A DNA stretch of 64,000 bases from Prevotellaceae bacterium (lineage in GTDB: Bacteria > Bacteroidota > Bacteroidia > Bacteroidales > Bacteroidaceae). The position numbers and the translations under genes are program-made. The notes below the pieces were generated by a model. It did not search any database. It saw only the letters and a program-made list of their open reading frames with translations, and had not been told where the DNA came from. The stretch lies in the NCBI GenBank assembly GCA_028726625.1, contig JAQYPT010000048.1:47853-111852 (forward strand), given 5' to 3'. Shown here in pieces: positions 2,498-34,772 of the stretch; the first letter of the stretch is position 1, and each line of letters starts with the position of its first letter.

Positions 2498-4687
2498 TTA
2501 CCTGATGAACATCAGTTCGCGGTATTTGGGTAACGTCCAAAGCTCGTCGCTGACGATCAGTTCGAGTTTATCTATATGATAGCGTATGGTTTCTATCTTT
2601 GGTTCAACGTTGTCATGGTAGGCGATGGCCTTCTCTCTCTCGTTCTCTATCTTGTTGGCAACCTTGCGCGCATTGATCAATTCTTCCACTCCTGTTTCGA
2701 TGATCTTTGTACGCTCAGCAATCTCCAGAATAATCTTTTTGTTGCGACAGGTCAGCTTTTCCGCTTCCTCACGGTCAAAAATCTCGAACATACGCGCCAC
2801 GTTGTTGGCCAATTGACTTTGATAATAGGTCGCAACTGGAATGATATGGTTCATCGTAAGATCACCCATAACGCGTGCTTCAATCTGTATTTTCTTGGTA
2901 TACATTTCCCATTTCACCTCATTGCGCGCCACCAACTCGCTCCGTGTCATCACCCCTGTGCTTTCAAACATCTTGATGCTGTCTTCGTCAAGATAACGGT
3001 CAAAGATGACTGGACAACTGTTTTCACAGTCCAGACCACGTCGCTTAGCTTCTTCCACCCATTCTTCACTGTACCCATTGCCATCAAAATGGATGGGCTT
3101 GCATGTCTTAATATCCTCACGAAGGACATCAATGATTGCCGATGTTTGGTCTTCACCTTGCTCAATCAGCGCATCCACGCGCTTCTTGAAGTTAGTCAAA
3201 GCCTCCGCCATGGCCGCATTGAGCACCAGCATGGAACAGGCACAGTTGGCTTCTGAGCCTACGGCGCGGAACTCAAAGCGATTACCTGTGAAGGCAAACG
3301 GACTGGTTCTGTTGCGGTCTGTATTGTCTATGAACAGCTCAGGAATCTCTGGAATGTCCAACATCATCCCCTGTTTACCGTGCAAGGTGAACAAGTCTTC
3401 TTTGTCAGCCACCTCAATATGGTTCAACAACTCAGTGAGTTGCGTACCCAAGAACGATGAAATGATGGCGGGTGGTGCCTCGTTTGCACCCAATCGATGG
3501 GCGTTGGTGGCACTCATGATGGATGCCTTGAGCAGTCCGTTGTGTTTGTATACACTCATCAACGTTTCCACCAAGAACACTACGAAGCGCAAGTTGTCCT
3601 CGGCTGTCTTGCCTGGTGCATGCAGCAACACGCCCGTATCGGTGCACAAGCTCCAGTTGTTGTGCTTGCCACTGCCGTTCACTCCGGCAAAAGGTTTCTC
3701 GTGTAACAGCACACGAAAACCATGTCTACGTGCCACACGTTTCATCAGTGACATGAGCAACATATTGTGATCGATGGCCAAGTTGCACTCCTCGAAGATG
3801 GGAGCCAACTCAAATTGGTTGGGTGCCACCTCGTTGTGACGGGTCTTACACGGTATACCAAGCTCGAGAGCCTGTATCTCCAAGTCTTTCATGAACGCCT
3901 GCACACGATCTGGAATGGTACCCAAATAATGGTCATCCATTTGCTGATTCTTGGCAGAATCATGCCCCATGAGCGTACGACCCGTTAACATCAGGTCGGG
4001 ACGCGCATGGTATAAATCCTCGTCTACCAGGAAATATTCCTGTTCCCAGCCCAAATTGGCCCGCACTTTCTTCACGTTAGGATCGAAATAGCGACAAACT
4101 TGCGTTGCTGCCACATCCACTGCATGGAGCGAACGCAGCAGAGGAGCCTTGTAATCAAGGGCCTCACCCGTATACGATATGAAGATAGTAGGAATACAAA
4201 GCGTATCATCAATGATGAAAACTGGTGACGTTGGATCCCAAGCCGAATAGCCTCGCGCCTCAAAAGTGTTGCGAATGCCTCCGTTGGGAAACGAAGATGA
4301 GTCGGCTTCTTGCTGAACTAACAACTTTCCACTAAACTCTTCAATCATGCCACCCTTACCGTCAAACTCCACAAAGGCGTCATGTTTCTCGGCAGTTCCT
4401 TCCGTCAAAGGCTGAAACCAGTGCGTATAATGGGTCACACCGTTTTCCTGTGCCCAGTGTTTCATACCCGTTGCCACGGCATCTGCAATGGAACGATTGA
4501 AATGGGCACCATTGTCAATCACATCAGTGAGTTGCTGGAACACGTCTTCCGGCAGGTATTTTTGCATTTTTGCACGGTTAAAGACGTATTTACCAAAGTA
4601 CTCTGAAGGCCTTTCCTTAGGAGCCTTCACAGCCAATGGGGCTTTTTTTGAAGCCTCAATAACTGCTTTAAATCTGAAATTTTCCAT
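2498..4687 (-). CDS. glnA: Glutamine synthetase type III
   Basis: 729 aa with GSIII motifs THYTHWFQPLT, HNEVAPNQFE, NGSGKHNNWS, DRNRTSPFAFTGNRFEFR. Confidence 0.95.
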   Translation of the reverse strand: MENFRFKAVIEASKKAPLAVKAPKERPSEYFGKYVFNRAKMQKYLPEDVFQQLTDVIDNGAHFNRSIADAVATGMKHWAQENGVTHYTHWFQPLTEGTAEKHDAFVEFDGKGGMIEEFSGKLLVQQEADSSSFPNGGIRNTFEARGYSAWDPTSPVFIIDDTLCIPTIFISYTGEALDYKAPLLRSLHAVDVAATQVCRYFDPNVKKVRANLGWEQEYFLVDEDLYHARPDLMLTGRTLMGHDSAKNQQMDDHYLGTIPDRVQAFMKDLEIQALELGIPCKTRHNEVAPNQFELAPIFEECNLAIDHNMLLMSLMKRVARRHGFRVLLHEKPFAGVNGSGKHNNWSLCTDTGVLLHAPGKTAEDNLRFVVFLVETLMSVYKHNGLLKASIMSATNAHRLGANEAPPAIISSFLGTQLTELLNHIEVADKEDLFTLHGKQGMMLDIPEIPELFIDNTDRNRTSPFAFTGNRFEFRAVGSEANCACSMLVLNAAMAEALTNFKKRVDALIEQGEDQTSAIIDVLREDIKTCKPIHFDGNGYSEEWVEEAKRRGLDCENSCPVIFDRYLDEDSIKMFESTGVMTRSELVARNEVKWEMYTKKIQIEARVMGDLTMNHIIPVATYYQSQLANNVARMFEIFDREEAEKLTCRNKKIILEIAERTKIIETGVEELINARKVANKIENEREKAIAYHDNVEPKIETIRYHIDKLELIVSDELWTLPKYRELMFIR

Positions 4688-28769: not shown

Positions 28770-28945
28770 TCATTGTTTTGACAAAAAGAGCAAGCGCAGA
28801 TTGTAAGGACGCGTGTTTTACACAGTTGCTGCGAAAACTCTTTGAGGCAAAGATAGCATAAGTTTTGCAAAGCATCAAGTAAACGCTTTGCTTTTTCTTG
28901 CAAAAGCATTACTTTTGCATCATTCATGAATCAATAGTTACCACG

Positions 28946-30238
28946 ATGAACAAAGCTTTAATCATCCTGTCTTTATGCTTTAGTTGGATTACCTCCAACG
29001 CTCAACTTTCTAAAACTGAGATTCGCAACAACCCTTTGTTGGCTGCCAACGGCTATTACGCTTATCCCGGGCCGCTAAAACCGCAGCTCACGCCTGCACC
29101 AAAGGGATATGTTGCGTTTTACATCAGTCATTATGGGCGGCACGGTTCGCGCTATCTCATCGACCCAAACGATTACAACGGTCCGCTTCGCACGCTGCAA
29201 AAGTCCGACAGCCTGGGCAAACTCACCCCTTTGGGCCAGGAGGTGTTGCGCAAAGTAACCCTGATTTGCAACGAGTCGAAAGGCAGATTGGGCGAGTTAA
29301 CCTTACGAGGAGCCGAGCAACATCAGCAGATAGCGCGCCGCATGTTCGAGCGTTTTCCCGAAGTGCTGAGTGGAAAAAGAAACGTAGATGCCAAGAGCAG
29401 CACCGTTATTCGCTGCATCTTGTCCATGGAAAATGCGTTGCTGCAACTGGCAAGGCTCAATCCTCAACTGCACATTACGCACGATGCCAGTGCGTATGAC
29501 ATGCCTTATTTGGTGTATGGCGACACGGCTTTATACAAAAACAAAATGCCCGAAAAGGTAAAAGAAATCTACGAGGCCTTTGCCAAGCGGCATGACAACC
29601 ATGTAGGGGTGATGAACCGAATTTTCAAGGATGAAAGCTATTGGCGCGAACACGTCGACGCTACACAATTAAACACCCAACTTTACAACCTTGCCAGCAA
29701 CGTGCAGAGCACCGAACTGCGCCATCAGCTGTCGCTCTTAGACCTCTTTACTCACGACGAGTTGTATGATGCTTGGCTGAAAACCAATGCCTGGTGGTAC
29801 ATCAACTATGGTCCGTCGCCCTTAAACGGAGCTGTTCAGCCCTATTCGCAGCGCATGTTGCTGCGCCGCATCATCACCGAGGCCGACAGTTGCGTGGCTC
29901 TCTCCCACCCCGGCGCAACGCTTCGTTATGGACACGACACGATGGTGATGCCTTTGGTGTGCCTGTTAGATATCAATGGTTACGGCAAACAGATAGAGGA
30001 TTTGGAGCGTTTGGATGACGAGAATTGGCTGGATTACCGCATCTTCCCTATGGCCTGCAACCTACAGTTTGTGTTCTATCGTTCGCAAGCGCGTCCACAC
30101 GACATCCTCGTGAAGGTGCTTCTGAACGAAGACGAGACCACTCTACCCCTCCCGACCGACATCGCTCCCTATTACCATTGGAACGATTTCAAGACTTATT
30201 ATCTGAACAAGATAGATCAATTTCAAACCAAGAAGTAG
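28946..30238 (+). CDS. Histidine acid phosphatase family, secreted
   Basis: Signal peptide, GRHGSR, LRYGHD, IFPMACNLQFVFY. The start is reassigned to 28946. Confidence 0.85.
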   Translation: MNKALIILSLCFSWITSNAQLSKTEIRNNPLLAANGYYAYPGPLKPQLTPAPKGYVAFYISHYGRHGSRYLIDPNDYNGPLRTLQKSDSLGKLTPLGQEVLRKVTLICNESKGRLGELTLRGAEQHQQIARRMFERFPEVLSGKRNVDAKSSTVIRCILSMENALLQLARLNPQLHITHDASAYDMPYLVYGDTALYKNKMPEKVKEIYEAFAKRHDNHVGVMNRIFKDESYWREHVDATQLNTQLYNLASNVQSTELRHQLSLLDLFTHDELYDAWLKTNAWWYINYGPSPLNGAVQPYSQRMLLRRIITEADSCVALSHPGATLRYGHDTMVMPLVCLLDINGYGKQIEDLERLDDENWLDYRIFPMACNLQFVFYRSQARPHDILVKVLLNEDETTLPLPTDIAPYYHWNDFKTYYLNKIDQFQTKK

Positions 30239-30358
30239 CCGCAGGTGATCCGTTTTTACGGTTGTCAAACGCTTGTAAAGAAACAATATTTTTGTTAAGA
30301 TAAATGAAAAAATAGCGACAATAATGGTATCTTTACCATGCGATTACCATATTTTGTC

Positions 30359-30366
30359 TATTTTTG
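30359..30366 (+). promoter_or_regulatory. -7 promoter element of uORF-TBDR-lipoprotein operon
   Basis: TATTTTTG 34 nt upstream of ATG 30400, preceded by the inverted repeat ATGGTA-TCTT-TACCAT (30323-30338). Confidence 0.55.
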
Positions 30367-30399
30367 CGTGCTAAAGATTGTAAGGTTATTTTAGTGCGA

Positions 30400-30726
30400 A
30401 TGACAACAAGAAGGACGAAACGCAGATTGATGGCGTGGATGATGGTGCTTACCTTCATCTCGGCTCTTCTCGTGAAAGACGTTCATGCGCACAGCATAAC
30501 TGTACAGCACTTAGACCCAATAGAGCAACACCAAACCACAGTACGGGCGTATTGTTATATTTGTAACTTTGACCTGTGCAAGATGAGCATGCCCAAACTC
30601 TTTGTTTGGCAGCCTGTGTTGCTTGTAAAACGTATTGTTAAACCGCTGTTTGCAGCACAAATCGTTTATCGTGAGCCGCTTGTGGTAAACGCTCATTCGC
30701 CGCCTTTTTTAATTCATAATTTTTAA
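30400..30726 (+). CDS. Small secreted CxxC protein / putative regulatory upstream ORF (DUF2946/CruR-like)
   Basis: MTTRRTKRRLMAWMMVLTFISALLVKDVHA-HS..., CYIC, C-terminal 'NAHSPPFL'. Lies directly upstream of a TBDR. Confidence 0.65.
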   Translation: MTTRRTKRRLMAWMMVLTFISALLVKDVHAHSITVQHLDPIEQHQTTVRAYCYICNFDLCKMSMPKLFVWQPVLLVKRIVKPLFAAQIVYREPLVVNAHSPPFLIHNF

Positions 30727-30885
30727 TTTATAATTCATACTTCAGATGAGAGATGATTCTTTCGTCTGTAGAATGATGATATTCATACCCCTGTTTTATT
30801 CAAAAATAGTGCAAACTGAAGGCTATTCAATCATGATTGAATGGCTGAGGCGAAGCCTATTGAATGAAAAGGAGAAATCATACAA

Positions 30886-33006
30886 ATGAATAAAAAGGAA
30901 AAATCATGGCTTATCATCCTATTGTCGTGTATGTTGATGAGCAATAGTACGTTGGTGAATGCGCAGGATGTAGAGCACATACCTAGGCATCATTTAAAAG
31001 ACACCATCACGCTGGGCGAAGTGGTAGTGAAGAGTAAACGACCAATTGTTACGCCCAACAGTGTGAGTGCCACGCTCACCCACGATGACATTGCCCGGGC
31101 AGCGGGCAAGTCTCTGGCCTCGATGTTAGAGAACGTCAGTGGGGTGAGCATGCTTCAAACGGGTTCTAACGTTGCCAAACCCGTGATACACGGCATGTAT
31201 GGCAACCGTATCTTGGTGGTGAGTCGAGGTGCTAAGCTTACCGGACAGCAGTGGGGGATAGACCATGCGCCAGAAATAGACAAGAATGCCTACAACGATG
31301 TGGTGGTAGTGAAAGGTTCTGAGTCGGTGAGATATGGCGCTGAGGCATTGGGTGGCATCATTTTGATGAACGGCAATCCCTTGCCGTATGGCACTCCTCA
31401 GGTGCAAGCCGACGTGATGAGCTACTATGGAAGCAACGGACAGCAGATGGGAATGGTAGGACAGATGCAGGGAACGATGCCTTTTAATCGCCAAATAGCG
31501 TGGAGTTTGCAAAGCACTTTTGAACAGTCGGGCGACCGAAGTACGGCGGCTTATCTGCTCAACAACACGGGCATGCGGCAACGTAACACCGCTTTTTCGC
31601 TTGGATACCTGCACGACCAGTGGCGCGTAGAAACAGGGTACAGCTTGTTTTGGCAGAAAATGGGGGTGATGCCTAGTGCGCAAATGGGTAACGAGCAGCT
31701 GTTGCAAGAGCGCATCAGGATAGGGCAACCAGTAGAGTTTACGCCTTTTACCTATCAAATAGATTATCCTTTTCAGCGTGTGGCGCACCATACCGCCTTT
31801 GTCAATGTGTATTATCAGCCCAGTAGGCGCGTGAAATGCAGTTGGCAAACCACCTATCAAGCCGACGATAGACGTGAGAATCGCATCCGTCGTATGAATC
31901 ATTCGGACATCCCTTCGGTTAGTCTTTTCTTGCAATCGCTGCAATCACAATGGCATTGGAGCAAGCTGTCTGACCGTTGGAAAACAGAGTTGGGGGCGCA
32001 AGGAATGCTCATGAAGAACAGCAATGAGCGTGGTACGGGTGTGGTACCCGTAATACCCAACTATACCGAGACGACCTTTGGCGCTTATGCGTTGCGCAAA
32101 TATTTGGGCGATACATGGGGTGTAGAGGGCGGAACCAGGTTTGATTATCAGCTTACTCGTGCTGATGGTTACGATTGGACCGGGCATCGATATGGGGGAA
32201 GCAGGCACTTTGAGAACGTTACCTTTACGCTTGGGGCGCATCAACACGTTACCAAACAACTGACACTTGCCTCGAACGTGGGCATGGCGTGGCGCGCACC
32301 TCACGTTTACGAACTGTTTAGTAATGGCAACGAGCTAAGCTCCGGCATGTTTGTGCGTGGCGACTCCACGCTCTGTTCAGAGCAGAGTTACAAGTGGGTG
32401 ACGTCGCTCAGCTATGCCAACACATGGGTGCAAGCTCGGGTGGATGGATATGTGCAATGGATCAATCATTACATTTACGATTATCCTACGCATGAGAACA
32501 TCGTCGTGGTGTCTGGGGCATATCCCGTGTTTCAGTATGTTCAGACCAATGCCTTGTTTCGCGGAGTGGACGTAGATACGCATTTTTACCCCTTGCGCAC
32601 GATAGATTATCGCGTGTTTGCATCGTGGATATGGGCGAACGAGCAACGGACCAAGGCGTATTTGCCGTACATTCCGGCGTTTAAGCTCACGCAACAACTG
32701 TCGTGGAAGCCTACCGTCAGTGGGGCTTGGCATCCTTCTGTGGGCATTGAACATCGCTATGTGGCCAAACAACGCAGGTTTAATGCGGCTACTGACCTGG
32801 TGGATGATACGCCTGCGGCATACCATTTGGTGGGTTTTAACTGTGGCGTCACCTGGAATATGCCTCACCATCAACATCTATCTTTGTCTTTAGAAGGAAC
32901 CAATGTGTTGAATCAATTATATAAGGAGTACACCAATCGGAGTCGTTATTACGCACATGATCTTGGGAGGGACATTCGTTGTATCCTTCGTTGGAAGTTT
33001 AATTGA
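30886..33006 (+). CDS. TonB-dependent outer membrane receptor (non-SusC type)
   Basis: TonB-box-like 'TITLGEVVVKS', plug 'LENVSGV..KPVIHGMYGNR', 'QQWGIDHAPEID', 'NVLNQLYKEYTNRSRYYA', terminal Phe region (WKFN). Confidence 0.9.
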   Translation: MNKKEKSWLIILLSCMLMSNSTLVNAQDVEHIPRHHLKDTITLGEVVVKSKRPIVTPNSVSATLTHDDIARAAGKSLASMLENVSGVSMLQTGSNVAKPVIHGMYGNRILVVSRGAKLTGQQWGIDHAPEIDKNAYNDVVVVKGSESVRYGAEALGGIILMNGNPLPYGTPQVQADVMSYYGSNGQQMGMVGQMQGTMPFNRQIAWSLQSTFEQSGDRSTAAYLLNNTGMRQRNTAFSLGYLHDQWRVETGYSLFWQKMGVMPSAQMGNEQLLQERIRIGQPVEFTPFTYQIDYPFQRVAHHTAFVNVYYQPSRRVKCSWQTTYQADDRRENRIRRMNHSDIPSVSLFLQSLQSQWHWSKLSDRWKTELGAQGMLMKNSNERGTGVVPVIPNYTETTFGAYALRKYLGDTWGVEGGTRFDYQLTRADGYDWTGHRYGGSRHFENVTFTLGAHQHVTKQLTLASNVGMAWRAPHVYELFSNGNELSSGMFVRGDSTLCSEQSYKWVTSLSYANTWVQARVDGYVQWINHYIYDYPTHENIVVVSGAYPVFQYVQTNALFRGVDVDTHFYPLRTIDYRVFASWIWANEQRTKAYLPYIPAFKLTQQLSWKPTVSGAWHPSVGIEHRYVAKQRRFNAATDLVDDTPAAYHLVGFNCGVTWNMPHHQHLSLSLEGTNVLNQLYKEYTNRSRYYAHDLGRDIRCILRWKFN

Positions 33007-33104: not shown

Positions 33105-34772
33105 ATGAGTAAAATAAAAAAAACAATGAGAACAAAGACCATTTTTTCAACCGTTTTCGCATACCTCAGTATGTTGTTGGTATTCGTAGTGGTATCATGT
33201 AAGCCCGAAGAGGCAGTCGATGAAATAAAAAACAAGTTGCACGAAGACCCGGTGAAGGCCGTGTTTACCTTGCAAGAGGGGTCCATCAAGGGTAACAAAT
33301 CGTTTAACCAGCAGTTGATATTGGCTGATTTTACCCCATCGACAACGCCGGCACAACAAATCGTTTGGGAAATAACACCCAAAGAAGGGTGGCATGTTAG
33401 CAGTGCACTCAAGCACTTTCAAGTGAAGAGTGTGAAGGAGGATCCGGCGGTGGTGTATCACCTGTCCATTGAATATTATAATAGCAAGGGGGAGAAAATC
33501 AATCACCAGTTCTTCGATTTGGGACAAGATAAGATACACCAGCACTTCTTTTCGCTGTACAAAACCGCTACGGTGCTGGGTAAAACGAGCAAAGCTCGCG
33601 TGAAAGATAAGAGCCAATTGCCCTACGATTATTGCTATGTGGACCAATACAATGGCGTAGACATGGGGGCTACCAACCCCGTTGGCTTTGACGGGTTGTT
33701 GCAGATTGTGCATCCAGGTGAGGCGTTCAACCTGTCAGTCGACTTGCTGCATGCGGCACAAAGCAAATATGATAAGGACAATCGATTATCACCTTTCTAT
33801 CTTCCTGCTGCGGTTCTCACCTCTACCGGTCAGTGGGATATAACGGTGTCGCTGCCCTTTGATGTAGACGGACAGGTGGCTCACGGGGACGTGAAACCCC
33901 TCGATGCGTCGCTGTTTCAACCCAAAACGGTGGAAATTGAGGTGTATGAGGGACATTTGCACGGCAAAAAAGCGTTCCATCAAAACGGATATTCAAAGAA
34001 TAATGAATATTTTGGGAAGTCTTATCGGTTGAAATATACCTTAGAAAACAATCGGTGGGTGGCTGATAAAACTAATCCTGCATGGGTGAACGTGTTGGGG
34101 AGTGCCAAAGAATATGCCATCTATGCCTTCGCATTGCGTTATTTCAATGATGAGCATGAGGATATAACGGGGCAGATAGTTGACAAGGGTGAAGGCCAAC
34201 ACTATCAGCATTTCTTTAGTGTGAGCAACATCAAACCTTCGTATGGTGGGGTAGAGGAAGCGACGGATGCCAACAACTCCGACTTTTTCAGTTACACCTA
34301 TTGCGACACTGATCCATGGAATAAGACCAATCATGTCGACCATGCTGTTTTTAACGATGACAATCATCCCATTGGACTCAAAGGTTATTTTGCCTTTAAG
34401 CGTGCGCATAAGCAGTTTACGTTGAGCGTTAGGTTAATGCGTGCGAGGCAGACAAAGTTGGTGGGGGGGAAGCCTTCTGTCTTTTATCAGCCAACCAAGC
34501 AACAGCAAGCCGAAGAGGCATGGATGCCAAGCATAGACATTCCGGTGAGAGTGTATATGGACGTGGACGAAAAAAGCCTGGACATGATTGATGATGACAG
34601 TATTCAGAACTTTGAAACAATGAAGATGAGCGACCTTTCTACTCGTGACCAAGGCATCGTAACTACATTGATGAAAGCCTTTGGCTTAAAAGATTTTAAG
34701 GTGGCTTTGGCAGAGTTTTATTGGCTGATAAACGGGACTCCTGCTCACGACGGTAAGGGTTTTTGGTTTTAA
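33105..34772 (+). CDS. Surface lipoprotein with two tandem His-motif domains (putative metal capture)
   Basis: Lipobox VVS-C followed by KPEEAVDE (acidic export-signal-like). Repeated motifs HQHFF/YQHFF, NPVGF/HPIGL, LSVDLLH/LSVRLMR, plus LHEDP and GHLHG. Confidence 0.75.
   Translation: MSKIKKTMRTKTIFSTVFAYLSMLLVFVVVSCKPEEAVDEIKNKLHEDPVKAVFTLQEGSIKGNKSFNQQLILADFTPSTTPAQQIVWEITPKEGWHVSSALKHFQVKSVKEDPAVVYHLSIEYYNSKGEKINHQFFDLGQDKIHQHFFSLYKTATVLGKTSKARVKDKSQLPYDYCYVDQYNGVDMGATNPVGFDGLLQIVHPGEAFNLSVDLLHAAQSKYDKDNRLSPFYLPAAVLTSTGQWDITVSLPFDVDGQVAHGDVKPLDASLFQPKTVEIEVYEGHLHGKKAFHQNGYSKNNEYFGKSYRLKYTLENNRWVADKTNPAWVNVLGSAKEYAIYAFALRYFNDEHEDITGQIVDKGEGQHYQHFFSVSNIKPSYGGVEEATDANNSDFFSYTYCDTDPWNKTNHVDHAVFNDDNHPIGLKGYFAFKRAHKQFTLSVRLMRARQTKLVGGKPSVFYQPTKQQQAEEAWMPSIDIPVRVYMDVDEKSLDMIDDDSIQNFETMKMSDLSTRDQGIVTTLMKAFGLKDFKVALAEFYWLINGTPAHDGKGFWF

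Follow-up and report, generated by a model that had tools for sequence, protein, structure and literature searches.

Work on the metal-sensing arrest leaders CruR and CutF has so far been limited to Proteobacteria and to copper. CruR (Bp2923, PF11162) is encoded by the first gene of cruR-bfrG(crtA)-bp2921 in Bordetella pertussis (Roy et al. 2022, PMC9426467). It has an export signal, an invariant CXXC and a RAPP motif located three residues from the C-terminus. The distance between CXXC and RAPP equals 45 residues and is kept within 1-2 residues in more than 2000 DUF2946 proteins; over 95% of DUF2946 members carry an export signal, either a signal peptide or an N-in/C-out transmembrane segment (PMC9426467). 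A ribosome stalled at RAPP shields the transcript from Rho, and copper, acting via CXXC, relieves the stall, so that the receptor is switched off (PMC9426467). CutF is rapidly degraded and acts in cis only (PMC9973294). In the catalogue of CutF-like proteins, which has 5,334 entries, Bacteroidota account for 19%, a share that normalisation raises to 40%, and the commonest neighbours include TonB-like proteins (Ozturk et al. 2023, PMC9973294; 10.1101/2025.02.05.636593). Upstream open reading frames (uORFs) ending in RAPP or RGPP and located before TonB-dependent receptors (TBDRs) are reported to be universal in Gram-negative bacteria (Fujiwara et al. 2025, PMC12992588), and natural arrest peptides carrying [R/Q/H]-[A/G]-P-P C-terminally have been defined as the RQH family (Fujiwara et al. 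2024, PMC10987492). Given that the CruR, CutF and RAPP surveys cover this leader class, Bacteroidota included, it is already catalogued in silico (2022-2025). The members from Bacteroidota, abundant anaerobes of the human gut, oral and vaginal communities, are known from bulk catalogues alone. Here we analyze a small open reading frame (ORF) preceding a TBDR gene in 64,000 nucleotides of DNA from a Prevotellaceae bacterium of the gut or vagina (contig JAQYPT010000048.1, positions 47,853 to 111,852 of the forward strand). The whole of this stretch is further referred to as the window, and positions are counted from its first letter. What appears to be new here is that the arginine of the arrest motif has been replaced naturally and that a longer block at the C-terminus is conserved.

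The ORF occupies positions 30400-30726 of the plus strand (ATG at 30400, stop codon TAA at 30724-30726). Its 108-aa product, obtained by direct reading of the sequence, is MTTRRTKRRLMAWMMVLTFISALLVKDVHAHSITVQHLDPIEQHQTTVRAYCYICNFDLCKMSMPKLFVWQPVLLVKRIVKPLFAAQIVYREPLVVNAHSPPFLIHNF; it starts with MTTRRTKRRLMAWMMVLTFISALLVKDVHAHS, contains AYCYICNFDLC in the middle and ends with VVNAHSPPFLIHNF followed by the stop. ATG 30400 is considered the true start because the basic N-terminus is conserved in homologs. The CYIC motif takes residues 52-55 (30553-30564) and HSPP takes residues 99-102 (30694-30705). The ATG of the TBDR is at 30886, which leaves 159 nt between the stop codon of the leader and the start of the receptor gene. 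The first-pass annotation had described an ORF of 108 aa that contains CYIC and ends 159 nt before a TBDR, and direct reading confirmed this description; HSPP, which it had taken for the very C-terminus, is followed by a tail of six residues (FLIHNF). By analogy with the systems described above, the ORF is probably an arrest leader (uORF) that senses metal and acts in cis at the head of a metal-uptake operon of three genes, and a diverged relative of CruR and CutF. In the feature classification used here it is a CruR/CutF-like small protein of the [HN][SA]PP subfamily.

Scans of the leader ORF against Pfam and NCBIfam gave no family match. A word-indexed search retrieved only close homologs, 73-91% identical, from Hoylesella timonensis and uncultured Prevotella. 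The first profile was built from the leader ORF and eight close homologs and run against 1.84 billion representative proteins. It yielded 31 representative clusters at E<1e-3, all of them 87-130 aa long. Two sets were used further: A2, the alignment of the representatives with the window ORF, containing H-type sequences only, and A3, the mixed profile. In A2, residues C52, C55, P101 and P102 are invariant, and K26, H29, V89, N97 and H99 are at least 90% conserved. In A3, the CxxC motif and H29 are invariant, and H31 is at least 90% conserved. At the nucleotide level, the invariant residues use varied synonymous codons in the 11 loci of the clade with H or N at the first motif position (further, the H/N clade): Pro is encoded by CCG, CCA, CCT and CCC, Ser by TCG and TCT, Asn by AAC and AAT, and Arg by CGT, CGA and CGC. 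Hence, selection acts on the peptide and not on the RNA. By these measures the leader ORF is a conserved gene, far beyond chance.

In genomes of the same GTDB family, the A2 profile found the leader in 65 of 301 genomes, one copy in each, representing 19 of 35 genera. Built from H-type sequences only, it also picked up ORFs ending with LRAPP, SRGPP and VRGPP, with E down to 5e-14. Within Bacteroidota as a whole, the A3 profile gave matches in 53 of 401 genomes and 26 of 179 genera, other classes included, with up to 4 copies per genome. As judged from these profile searches, the leader belongs to a family of 85-130-aa ORFs that spans Bacteroidota. Of the 59 fetched loci, 57 yielded a PP-terminal leader ORF, and the motif and spacer counts refer to these 57. 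The motif is RAPP in 28 loci, RGPP in 17, HSPP in 8, NSPP in 3 and RSPP in one. CxxC is present in all 57. The spacer between CxxC and xxPP is 43 aa long in 35 loci, 44 aa in 17, 45 aa in 3 and 42 aa in 2; in the 31 representatives it is always 43 or 44 aa. The tail following PP has 2-7 residues. The sequence of the spacer is essentially unconserved, with at most 0.7 bits per position in the clade carrying R. As the length of the spacer is kept and its sequence is not, it behaves as a length ruler.

The position of the leader relative to a receptor gene is conserved as well. Each of the 30 family-level loci has a TBDR gene as its next same-strand neighbour (blastp against the window TBDR, E from 1e-7 to 0). 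At 23 of the 27 phylum-level loci a signal-peptide gene, recognised by its signal-peptide start only, lies at most 330 nt downstream. Overall, 53 of the 57 loci have a signal-peptide (receptor-type) gene on the same strand within this distance. Three further phylum-level gaps measure 418-588 nt, and one of the downstream products resembles a lipoprotein rather than a receptor. Across loci, the gaps between leader and receptor are mostly 46-325 nt long and structured. The first-pass annotation had proposed to check CxxC and [RH][ASG]PP upstream of homologous TBDRs for conservation; CxxC and [RHN][AGS]PP were conserved in the 57 Bacteroidota loci.

Three elements of the leader are candidates for a role in sensing and arrest. 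The first is the N-terminal hydrophobic helix, residues 4-30 with the core M11-V25 (30409-30489, plus strand), a putative export signal or signal anchor. The N-terminus has a charge of +5 followed by a hydrophobic core of 15-16 residues, both features being conserved in A2 and A3, as is the motif AW.LL..F within the helix. The second comprises the candidate metal ligands, namely K26-D-V-H29-A-H31 (30475-30492, plus strand), conserved as K-x-x-H-x-H, and the invariant CxxC, C52-Y-I-C55 (30553-30564, plus strand), placed 43 residues before H99. The third is the C-terminal block Q87-I-V-Y-R-E-P-L-V-V-N-A-H-S-P-P (30658-30705, plus strand), a candidate arrest sequence with a predicted position in the exit tunnel. 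Signal-peptide cleavage at VHA|HS, exposing a His, had been proposed earlier; this site is peculiar to the leader's own species group. Relatives have Y, F, I, L, S or H in the −1 column (A2 and A3 alignments), and the feature conserved near the putative cleavage site is K26-x-x-H29-x-H31, not the AxA-like site itself. AlphaFold2 run with the 31-sequence alignment predicts one helix at residues 4-30 and coil for residues 31-108 (pTM, the predicted template modelling score, 0.29); beyond the N-terminal helix, it predicts no globular fold of the leader.

The majority of family members end with LR[AG]PP. In A3 the [HN][SA]PP motif of the Hoylesella/Prevotella branch shares the alignment column with R[AG]PP. 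Thus, in the place of the RAPP of the CruR family the window leader has HSPP, and the relatives have R[AGS]PP in the same column in 46 of 57 loci. We built a maximum likelihood tree of the receptors from 52 loci. The 11 H/N loci lie within a clade with 100/99 support, alongside the RAPP loci L025-L027; the RAPP locus L035 is sister to the clade holding the H/N loci, and R[AG]PP loci are found further out. Inside the H/N group, the three NSPP loci cluster as a subclade. A single state change suffices to produce the distribution of R and H/N on this tree. Since the H/N loci are nested among RAPP loci, the H/N state is derived. The codon paths are single-step ones: R turns into H by CGY to CAY, A into S by GCN to TCN, and H into N by CAY to AAY. 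Of the 31 representatives, 5 have the intermediate HAPP.

The change of the motif is accompanied by a block of conservation. In the H/N clade, positions −15 to 0 follow the pattern Q-x-V-Y-R-x-[VI]-x-S-[VI]-N-[AST]-[HN]-S-P-P, with the information content of up to 3.5 bits; just upstream of this 16-residue block, H/N sequences have 0.5-1.4 bits. In the R clade, information is confined to L-R-[AG]-P-P. A close relative of the window leader, L018, has C-C in place of Y-R in the C-terminal block. The 16-residue block suggests that tunnel contacts may compensate for the lost arginine.

Published precedents for the individual substitutions are uneven. Every substitution of the motif Arg abolished arrest in ApcA, ApdA, ApdP and SecM (PMC12992588); given that Arg is irreplaceable in the tested RAPP peptides, stalling at HSPP is not to be assumed. 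Replacement of Ala by Ser in RAPP is partially permissive in ApdA and ApdP, and HGPP and RSPP came from random arrest screens (PMC12992588). Stalling in vitro was demonstrated for natural HAPP and QAPP peptides, and in the HAPP peptide H129A impairs the arrest (PMC10987492). These studies provide a precedent for H at the first position (HAPP) and a partially permissive one for S at the second, and none for N at the first. In the proteome of the leader's own genome, HSPP is observed 0 times at 0.7 expected, which is uninformative, and R[AGS]PP is observed 0 times at 4.9 expected, which fits avoidance, the numbers being tiny.

The region 30660-30900, covering the end of the leader, the gap and the receptor start, folds better than shuffled sequence (z = −3.6). 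The sequence CCUUUUUUAAUUCAU, codons P102-H106 (30703-30717, plus strand), forms the 5' strand of a predicted long-range helix masking the TBDR initiation region (30864-30898, plus strand). The latter comprises AUGAAAAGG, the Shine-Dalgarno-like AGGAG (30870-30874), the start codon at 30886 and codons 2-4. According to the minimum free energy structure and the partition function, CCUUUUUUAAUUCAU has two alternative partners, AUGAAAAGG overlapping AGGAG (30864-30874) or AUGAAUAAAAAGG, the start codon with codons 2-4 (30886-30898). For a ribosome stalled at P101/P102, CCUUUUUUAAUUCAU is within approximately 15 nt downstream of the P site. When the footprint of the stalled ribosome was forced to be single-stranded, the mean unpaired probability of positions −18 to +12 rose from 0.34 to 0.56; a control footprint placed 36 nt further upstream had no effect on the pairing of the initiation region.

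We analyzed the same architecture throughout the family, considering a 24-nt window starting 3 nt into the PP codons and requiring at least 4 expected base pairs with the initiation region. Such a tail-start helix was predicted in 17 of 51 loci, compared to 9 of 255 control windows (Fisher p = 5e-9). After grouping at 50% identity, it was retained in 12 of 37 groups versus 5 of 185 (p = 3e-7). As the helix sequences differ between the groups, this is architectural covariation.

The structured intergenic region between leader and receptor (30727-30885, plus strand, 159 nt) holds a hairpin/palindrome at 30821-30846. Within it, a perfect 18-bp palindrome ATTCAATCATGATTGAAT is located at 30825-30842, 44-61 nt before the TBDR ATG. 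With 0 mismatches, the palindrome has no second copy in the genome; allowing up to 2 gives 24 matches versus 10 in the control. It is conserved only in near-identical relatives, one of which has a central A-to-C change. We considered it as an operator of a regulon and rejected it as a recognisable site of this kind; it may be an RNA hairpin, which is the simpler reading, or an operator. A scan of 29800-31300 against Rfam gave chance-level matches only, and no known riboswitch or leader RNA. A second small ORF at 30746-30889, the stop of which overlaps the TBDR start as ATGA, was rejected as a gene, since it is broken or start-less in relatives L002, L004, L006, L007 and L010. In the same five close relatives (upstream of their position 4001), the gap contains an apparent extra repeated module, read as a repeated '...FY.KI...AE...' in the translated frame, and the gap length seems to be strain-variable.

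A putative Bacteroidota-type −7 promoter motif (TAnnTTTG), TATTTTTG, is located at 30359-30366 on the plus strand, 34 nt 5' of the leader ATG. Other plus-strand copies were found at 30287-30294, upstream of the leader, and at 30556 and 30564, inside it; in the whole window the pattern search gave 77 matches versus 50.8 expected. In the 159-nt gap 30727-30885, the pattern search found no plus-strand TAnnTTTG, and therefore the statement that the TBDR has no separate promoter motif holds. The earlier claim that the motif lies in front of the small ORF only stands for the gap and is loose for the ORF itself with its two copies. The latter, TAnnTTTG-like motifs at 30556-30571, coincide exactly with the leader Y-I-C-N-F codons. 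This pair is probably a codon by-product, an internal promoter being possible. A scan for sigma-70-type promoters and terminators found nothing beyond what was seen in shuffles, and no terminator was called in the 159-nt gap.

Taken as an arrest leader, the ORF would act as follows. The operon would be transcribed from the TAnnTTTG promoter at 30359. The ribosome would pause when P101 occupies the P site and P102 the A site, the residues Q87...N97-A-H-S-P being in the tunnel and the peptidyl-transferase centre. At this pause, CxxC, 43 residues upstream, would be just outside the ribosome, and the N-terminal helix with K-x-x-H-x-H would be engaged with the membrane or the translocon. The paused ribosome would cover 30703-30717 and expose the receptor start codon, and translation would continue. 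By analogy with CruR, the pause would end once the His2/Cys2 ligands of the nascent chain bind metal. With sufficient metal, the receptor would be off, either through the helix forming again or through Rho reaching the transcript. Along the lineage, the ancestral R[AG]PP turned into H[SA]PP and further into NSPP, alongside the newly conserved 16-residue block.

Several observations weigh against this model. One group concerns the membership in the known family. The first-pass annotation had likened the ORF to DUF2946-type uORFs; the PF11162 (DUF2946) profile hidden Markov model (HMM) does not recognise it, giving no match to the window leader at E<=1 or E<=10. The same HMM has weak matches in 12 of 35 relatives (best E 4.8e-4) and is the only Pfam family matched by more than one member; the one score printed, that of the L011 leader, is 11.5 bits versus the gathering score of 23.7 bits. 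NCBIfam scans of the relatives gave only weak matches to LIC10965_fam (12/35) and CzcI (3/35). What stood of the CruR/CutF-type leader with a variant motif is the CxxC, the PP, the spacer and the position before the TBDR, and what did not is the match to the DUF2946 HMM. The spacing, 43 aa in the window leader and 43 or 44 aa in the representatives, agrees with the CruR hallmark of 45 +/- 2 (PMC9426467), being 1-2 residues shorter, at the edge of the published tolerance. The sequence comparison thus points to a distant relative of CruR and CutF that would work like them, not to a demonstrable DUF2946 member.

Another group of observations concerns the arrest itself. The double mutant R139A+A140S of CruR lost function (PMC9426467). 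By analogy, HSPP, and especially NSPP, may cause no stall, or a weaker, EF-P-dependent di-proline stall. The extra conservation of the C-terminus in the H/N clade may be partly phylogenetic, given that this clade is less diverged (mean identity 30% vs 17% in the R clade). The remaining points concern the masking helix. In the H/N clade it is predicted only for the leader's own species group (L014, L015, L018), and folding did not reveal a tail-start helix in the H/N loci L012, L013, L016, L017 and L019-L022. As approximately two thirds of the loci lack it, the helix is not a universal output mechanism. In a longer folding context, the region before the start codon pairs best with an intergenic segment (+76). 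Finally, analogy with CruR makes Rho-dependent termination equally possible.

The nature of the sensed metal was assessed from the receptor and the leader ligands. The TBDR (30886-33006, plus strand) is a 706-aa protein of non-SusC type with a Pfam Plug match. The nearest solved structures for its plug domain are OprC (copper, E 2.4e-9) and ZnuD (zinc, E 1.7e-8), and matches to NCBIfam TBDR subfamilies are all far below the cut-offs. The invariant residues of the orthologs include H127, H301, H473, H623, H691, M104 and M262, and no Cys. An OprC-type CxxxM/HxM copper site was ruled out, since there is no invariant Cys among the orthologs. The two His and two Cys ligands of the leader would fit Zn(II) or Cu(I). 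Behind the RAPP/RGPP leaders of L036, L039 and L040, the mature N-termini of some receptors are His-rich, e.g. QDHHHHYNHEHP. Such N-termini hint at divalent metals as substrates, not siderophores.

A more specific version of the arrest-leader model may be formulated for the Hoylesella/Prevotella branch. These leaders would be functional arginine-less descendants of RAPP leaders, stalling via the SecM-like tunnel motif QxVYRx[VI]xS[VI]N[AST][HN]SPP, with a His2Cys2 sensor for a metal other than copper, zinc being the most plausible one in anaerobes. We put this version forward tentatively, as a possibility well short of probable.

Of the rival explanations, the one closest to the arrest-leader model retains the regulatory leader and changes its output to a transcriptional one, as in CruR: the ribosome at the leader end would control Rho access and termination in the 159-nt gap. 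It has the CruR precedent with a near-identical gap of 162 nt (PMC9426467), and it fits the lack of a tail-start helix in the majority of family loci, including other H/N loci, as well as the gaps that are long (46-325 nt) and structured. However, rut sites are C-rich and unstructured, which is not obvious for the gap in the window with its high AT content and strong hairpins, and this gap contains no called terminator-like site; the pairing of the tail with the start region is predicted here and strongly enriched across the family. We consider this output rather unlikely as the principal one, while the Rho-type and unmasking outputs would be mutually compatible.

The next rival departs further from the arrest-leader model. 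The leader might encode a stable small metal-binding protein, membrane-anchored or periplasmic, e.g. a chaperone or a partner of the receptor or the lipoprotein, in which case the C-terminal block would be an interaction or metal motif. A His2Cys2 site could plausibly be formed by H29, H31, C52 and C55, the best conserved residues besides PP, the 16 conserved C-terminal residues of the H/N clade exceed the needs of a RAPP leader, and the arginine deemed essential for RAPP arrest is absent (PMC12992588). On the other side, no fold is predicted except for one helix. The 43-aa segment between CxxC and PP is fixed in length and free in sequence, as befits a ruler and not a domain, while the motif is always 2-7 residues from the stop and the gene always immediately precedes the receptor. 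Moreover, the leader descends from RAPP-type leaders by the receptor tree, and its homolog CutF undergoes fast degradation and has its effect in cis alone (PMC9973294). Taken together, these points make a stable protein unlikely.

The weakest rival, that the H/N leaders are arrest-dead, decaying or merely co-translated uORFs and the receptor is controlled otherwise, e.g. by a metalloregulator at the palindrome 30825-30842, draws on the irreplaceable Arg of the tested RAPP peptides (PMC12992588) and on the perfect 18-bp palindrome 44-61 nt before the receptor ATG, and is highly improbable, as the reading frame, ruler length, PP and 16-residue block are all maintained by amino-acid-level selection in 31 clusters at <=50% identity, which are therefore not decaying, and the palindrome is unique in the genome and kept only among near-identical relatives.

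The third gene of the conserved cassette (33105-34772, plus strand) encodes a 555-aa lipoprotein. It has no match in Pfam or NCBIfam. BLAST against the third genes of L072-L076 revealed that it is a tandem duplication of a module of approximately 340 aa, both halves of the lipoprotein matching the single-copy proteins at 23-33% identity. L073-L076 have one module (~340 aa), whereas the window and L072 have the duplicated form (~555 aa). The cassette of leader, TBDR and lipoprotein is the same in H, N and sister R loci. A distant relative of the TBDR, 24% identical, was found in locus L011; a leader ORF ending with VRGPPAV is directly upstream of it, and a DUF4625 lipoprotein follows it in the position equivalent to that of the window lipoprotein. 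The cassette is flanked by a histidine-phosphatase-type gene (28898-30238), the 5' neighbour of the leader ORF, and by polA on the opposite strand after the lipoprotein gene.

Further arrest-type leaders were searched for by scanning all small ORFs in the leader's own genome. Contig C92 (L042 1468-1884) contains a 138-aa His-rich ORF with an N-terminal hydrophobic helix, ending with GRRGPPALS. It lies 275 nt before a gene of a CusA/CzcA-type resistance-nodulation-division (RND) efflux pump (2159 onward), and its match to DUF2946 is weak (19.4 bits). On the minus strand of contig C43, near the contig end, there is a 130-aa ORF MKQKLYITILALTT...HHHH...GLRAPPFYRF. A 256-aa signal-peptide protein is encoded 139 nt after it, and a 1025-aa RND pump comes next. 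As both canonical leaders are located at pumps, the organism would use R[AG]PP for efflux and the H type for uptake.

These observations extend the leader family beyond what Pfam DUF2946 detects and reveal that the length ruler between CxxC and the stall site is kept across the phylum. One lineage swapped the arginine that mutagenesis calls irreplaceable, gaining conserved putative tunnel residues. If HSPP and NSPP still stall, the series RAPP, HAPP, HSPP, NSPP would provide natural intermediates for dissecting how ribosome contacts are rewired, as well as a handle on the regulation of metal piracy in Prevotella-type bacteria. If they do not, the H/N leaders would be an example of leader re-purposing. 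If the arginine-less leaders do sense a metal other than copper, they would be the first non-copper metal-sensing arrest peptides.

Compared to the described systems, the window leader is most similar to CruR. In both cases, a small protein, exported or anchored in CruR and putatively so in the window, heads a TBDR operon and carries CxxC and, near the stop, xxPP; an uptake receptor is the gene regulated by CruR and the one predicted to be regulated in the window. The number of residues after xxPP is 3 in CruR, 6 in the window leader and 2-7 in its family; the gap to the TBDR is 162 nt versus 159 nt, and the spacer from CxxC to the motif is 45 aa versus 43 aa. Unlike CruR, the window leader has no PF11162 match, contains HSPP instead of RAPP, and adds the conserved K-x-x-H-x-H and the 16-residue C-terminal block. 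The third gene encodes a surface lipoprotein in the window and a PepSY_TM protein in the CruR operon, and, as far as tested, the window receptor is no CrtA ortholog. The outputs differ as well, since unmasking of the initiation region is predicted for the window and Rho termination operates in CruR.

The CutF-like proteins were defined by a length below 150 aa, PP among the final 15 residues, an export signal at the N-terminus and a gene within 1 kb downstream on the same strand. The window leader passes all these filters (108 aa; PP at 101-102; the TBDR 159 nt away), the export signal being deduced from its sequence. In CutF of Rhodobacter capsulatus, the stall melts an mRNA stem hiding the downstream ribosome-binding site, similarly to the architecture predicted for the window. 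On the other hand, CutF carries CxxxC together with a poly-proline motif, and the gene under its control, for a detoxifying multicopper oxidase, is switched on by metal, whereas the gene that would be regulated in the window encodes an uptake receptor, expected to be off with metal.

The RQH peptides resemble the window leader in being small proteins with a localisation signal, putative in the window, and a C-terminal motif, encoded before the gene that they regulate or, in the window, would regulate. The RQH peptide with HAPP comes from Lachnospirales, where it lies upstream of secDF; it stalls in vitro in a His-dependent manner and is not a metal system. The RQH surveys used fixed motifs (RAPP, RGPP, HAPP, HGPP, QAPP and others), among which HSPP and NSPP are not listed. 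What distinguishes the window leader is that its H/N state is derived from RAPP within one orthologous operon. SecM of Escherichia coli (FxxxxWIxxxxGIRAGP) resembles what is predicted for the window leader in being an exported leader, the arrest of which needs both the motif at the peptidyl-transferase centre and approximately 17 residues contacting the tunnel, and its stall opens an mRNA helix hiding the downstream start site. Its sequence is unrelated to that of the window leader, and it senses translocation force instead of metal and keeps the essential Arg.

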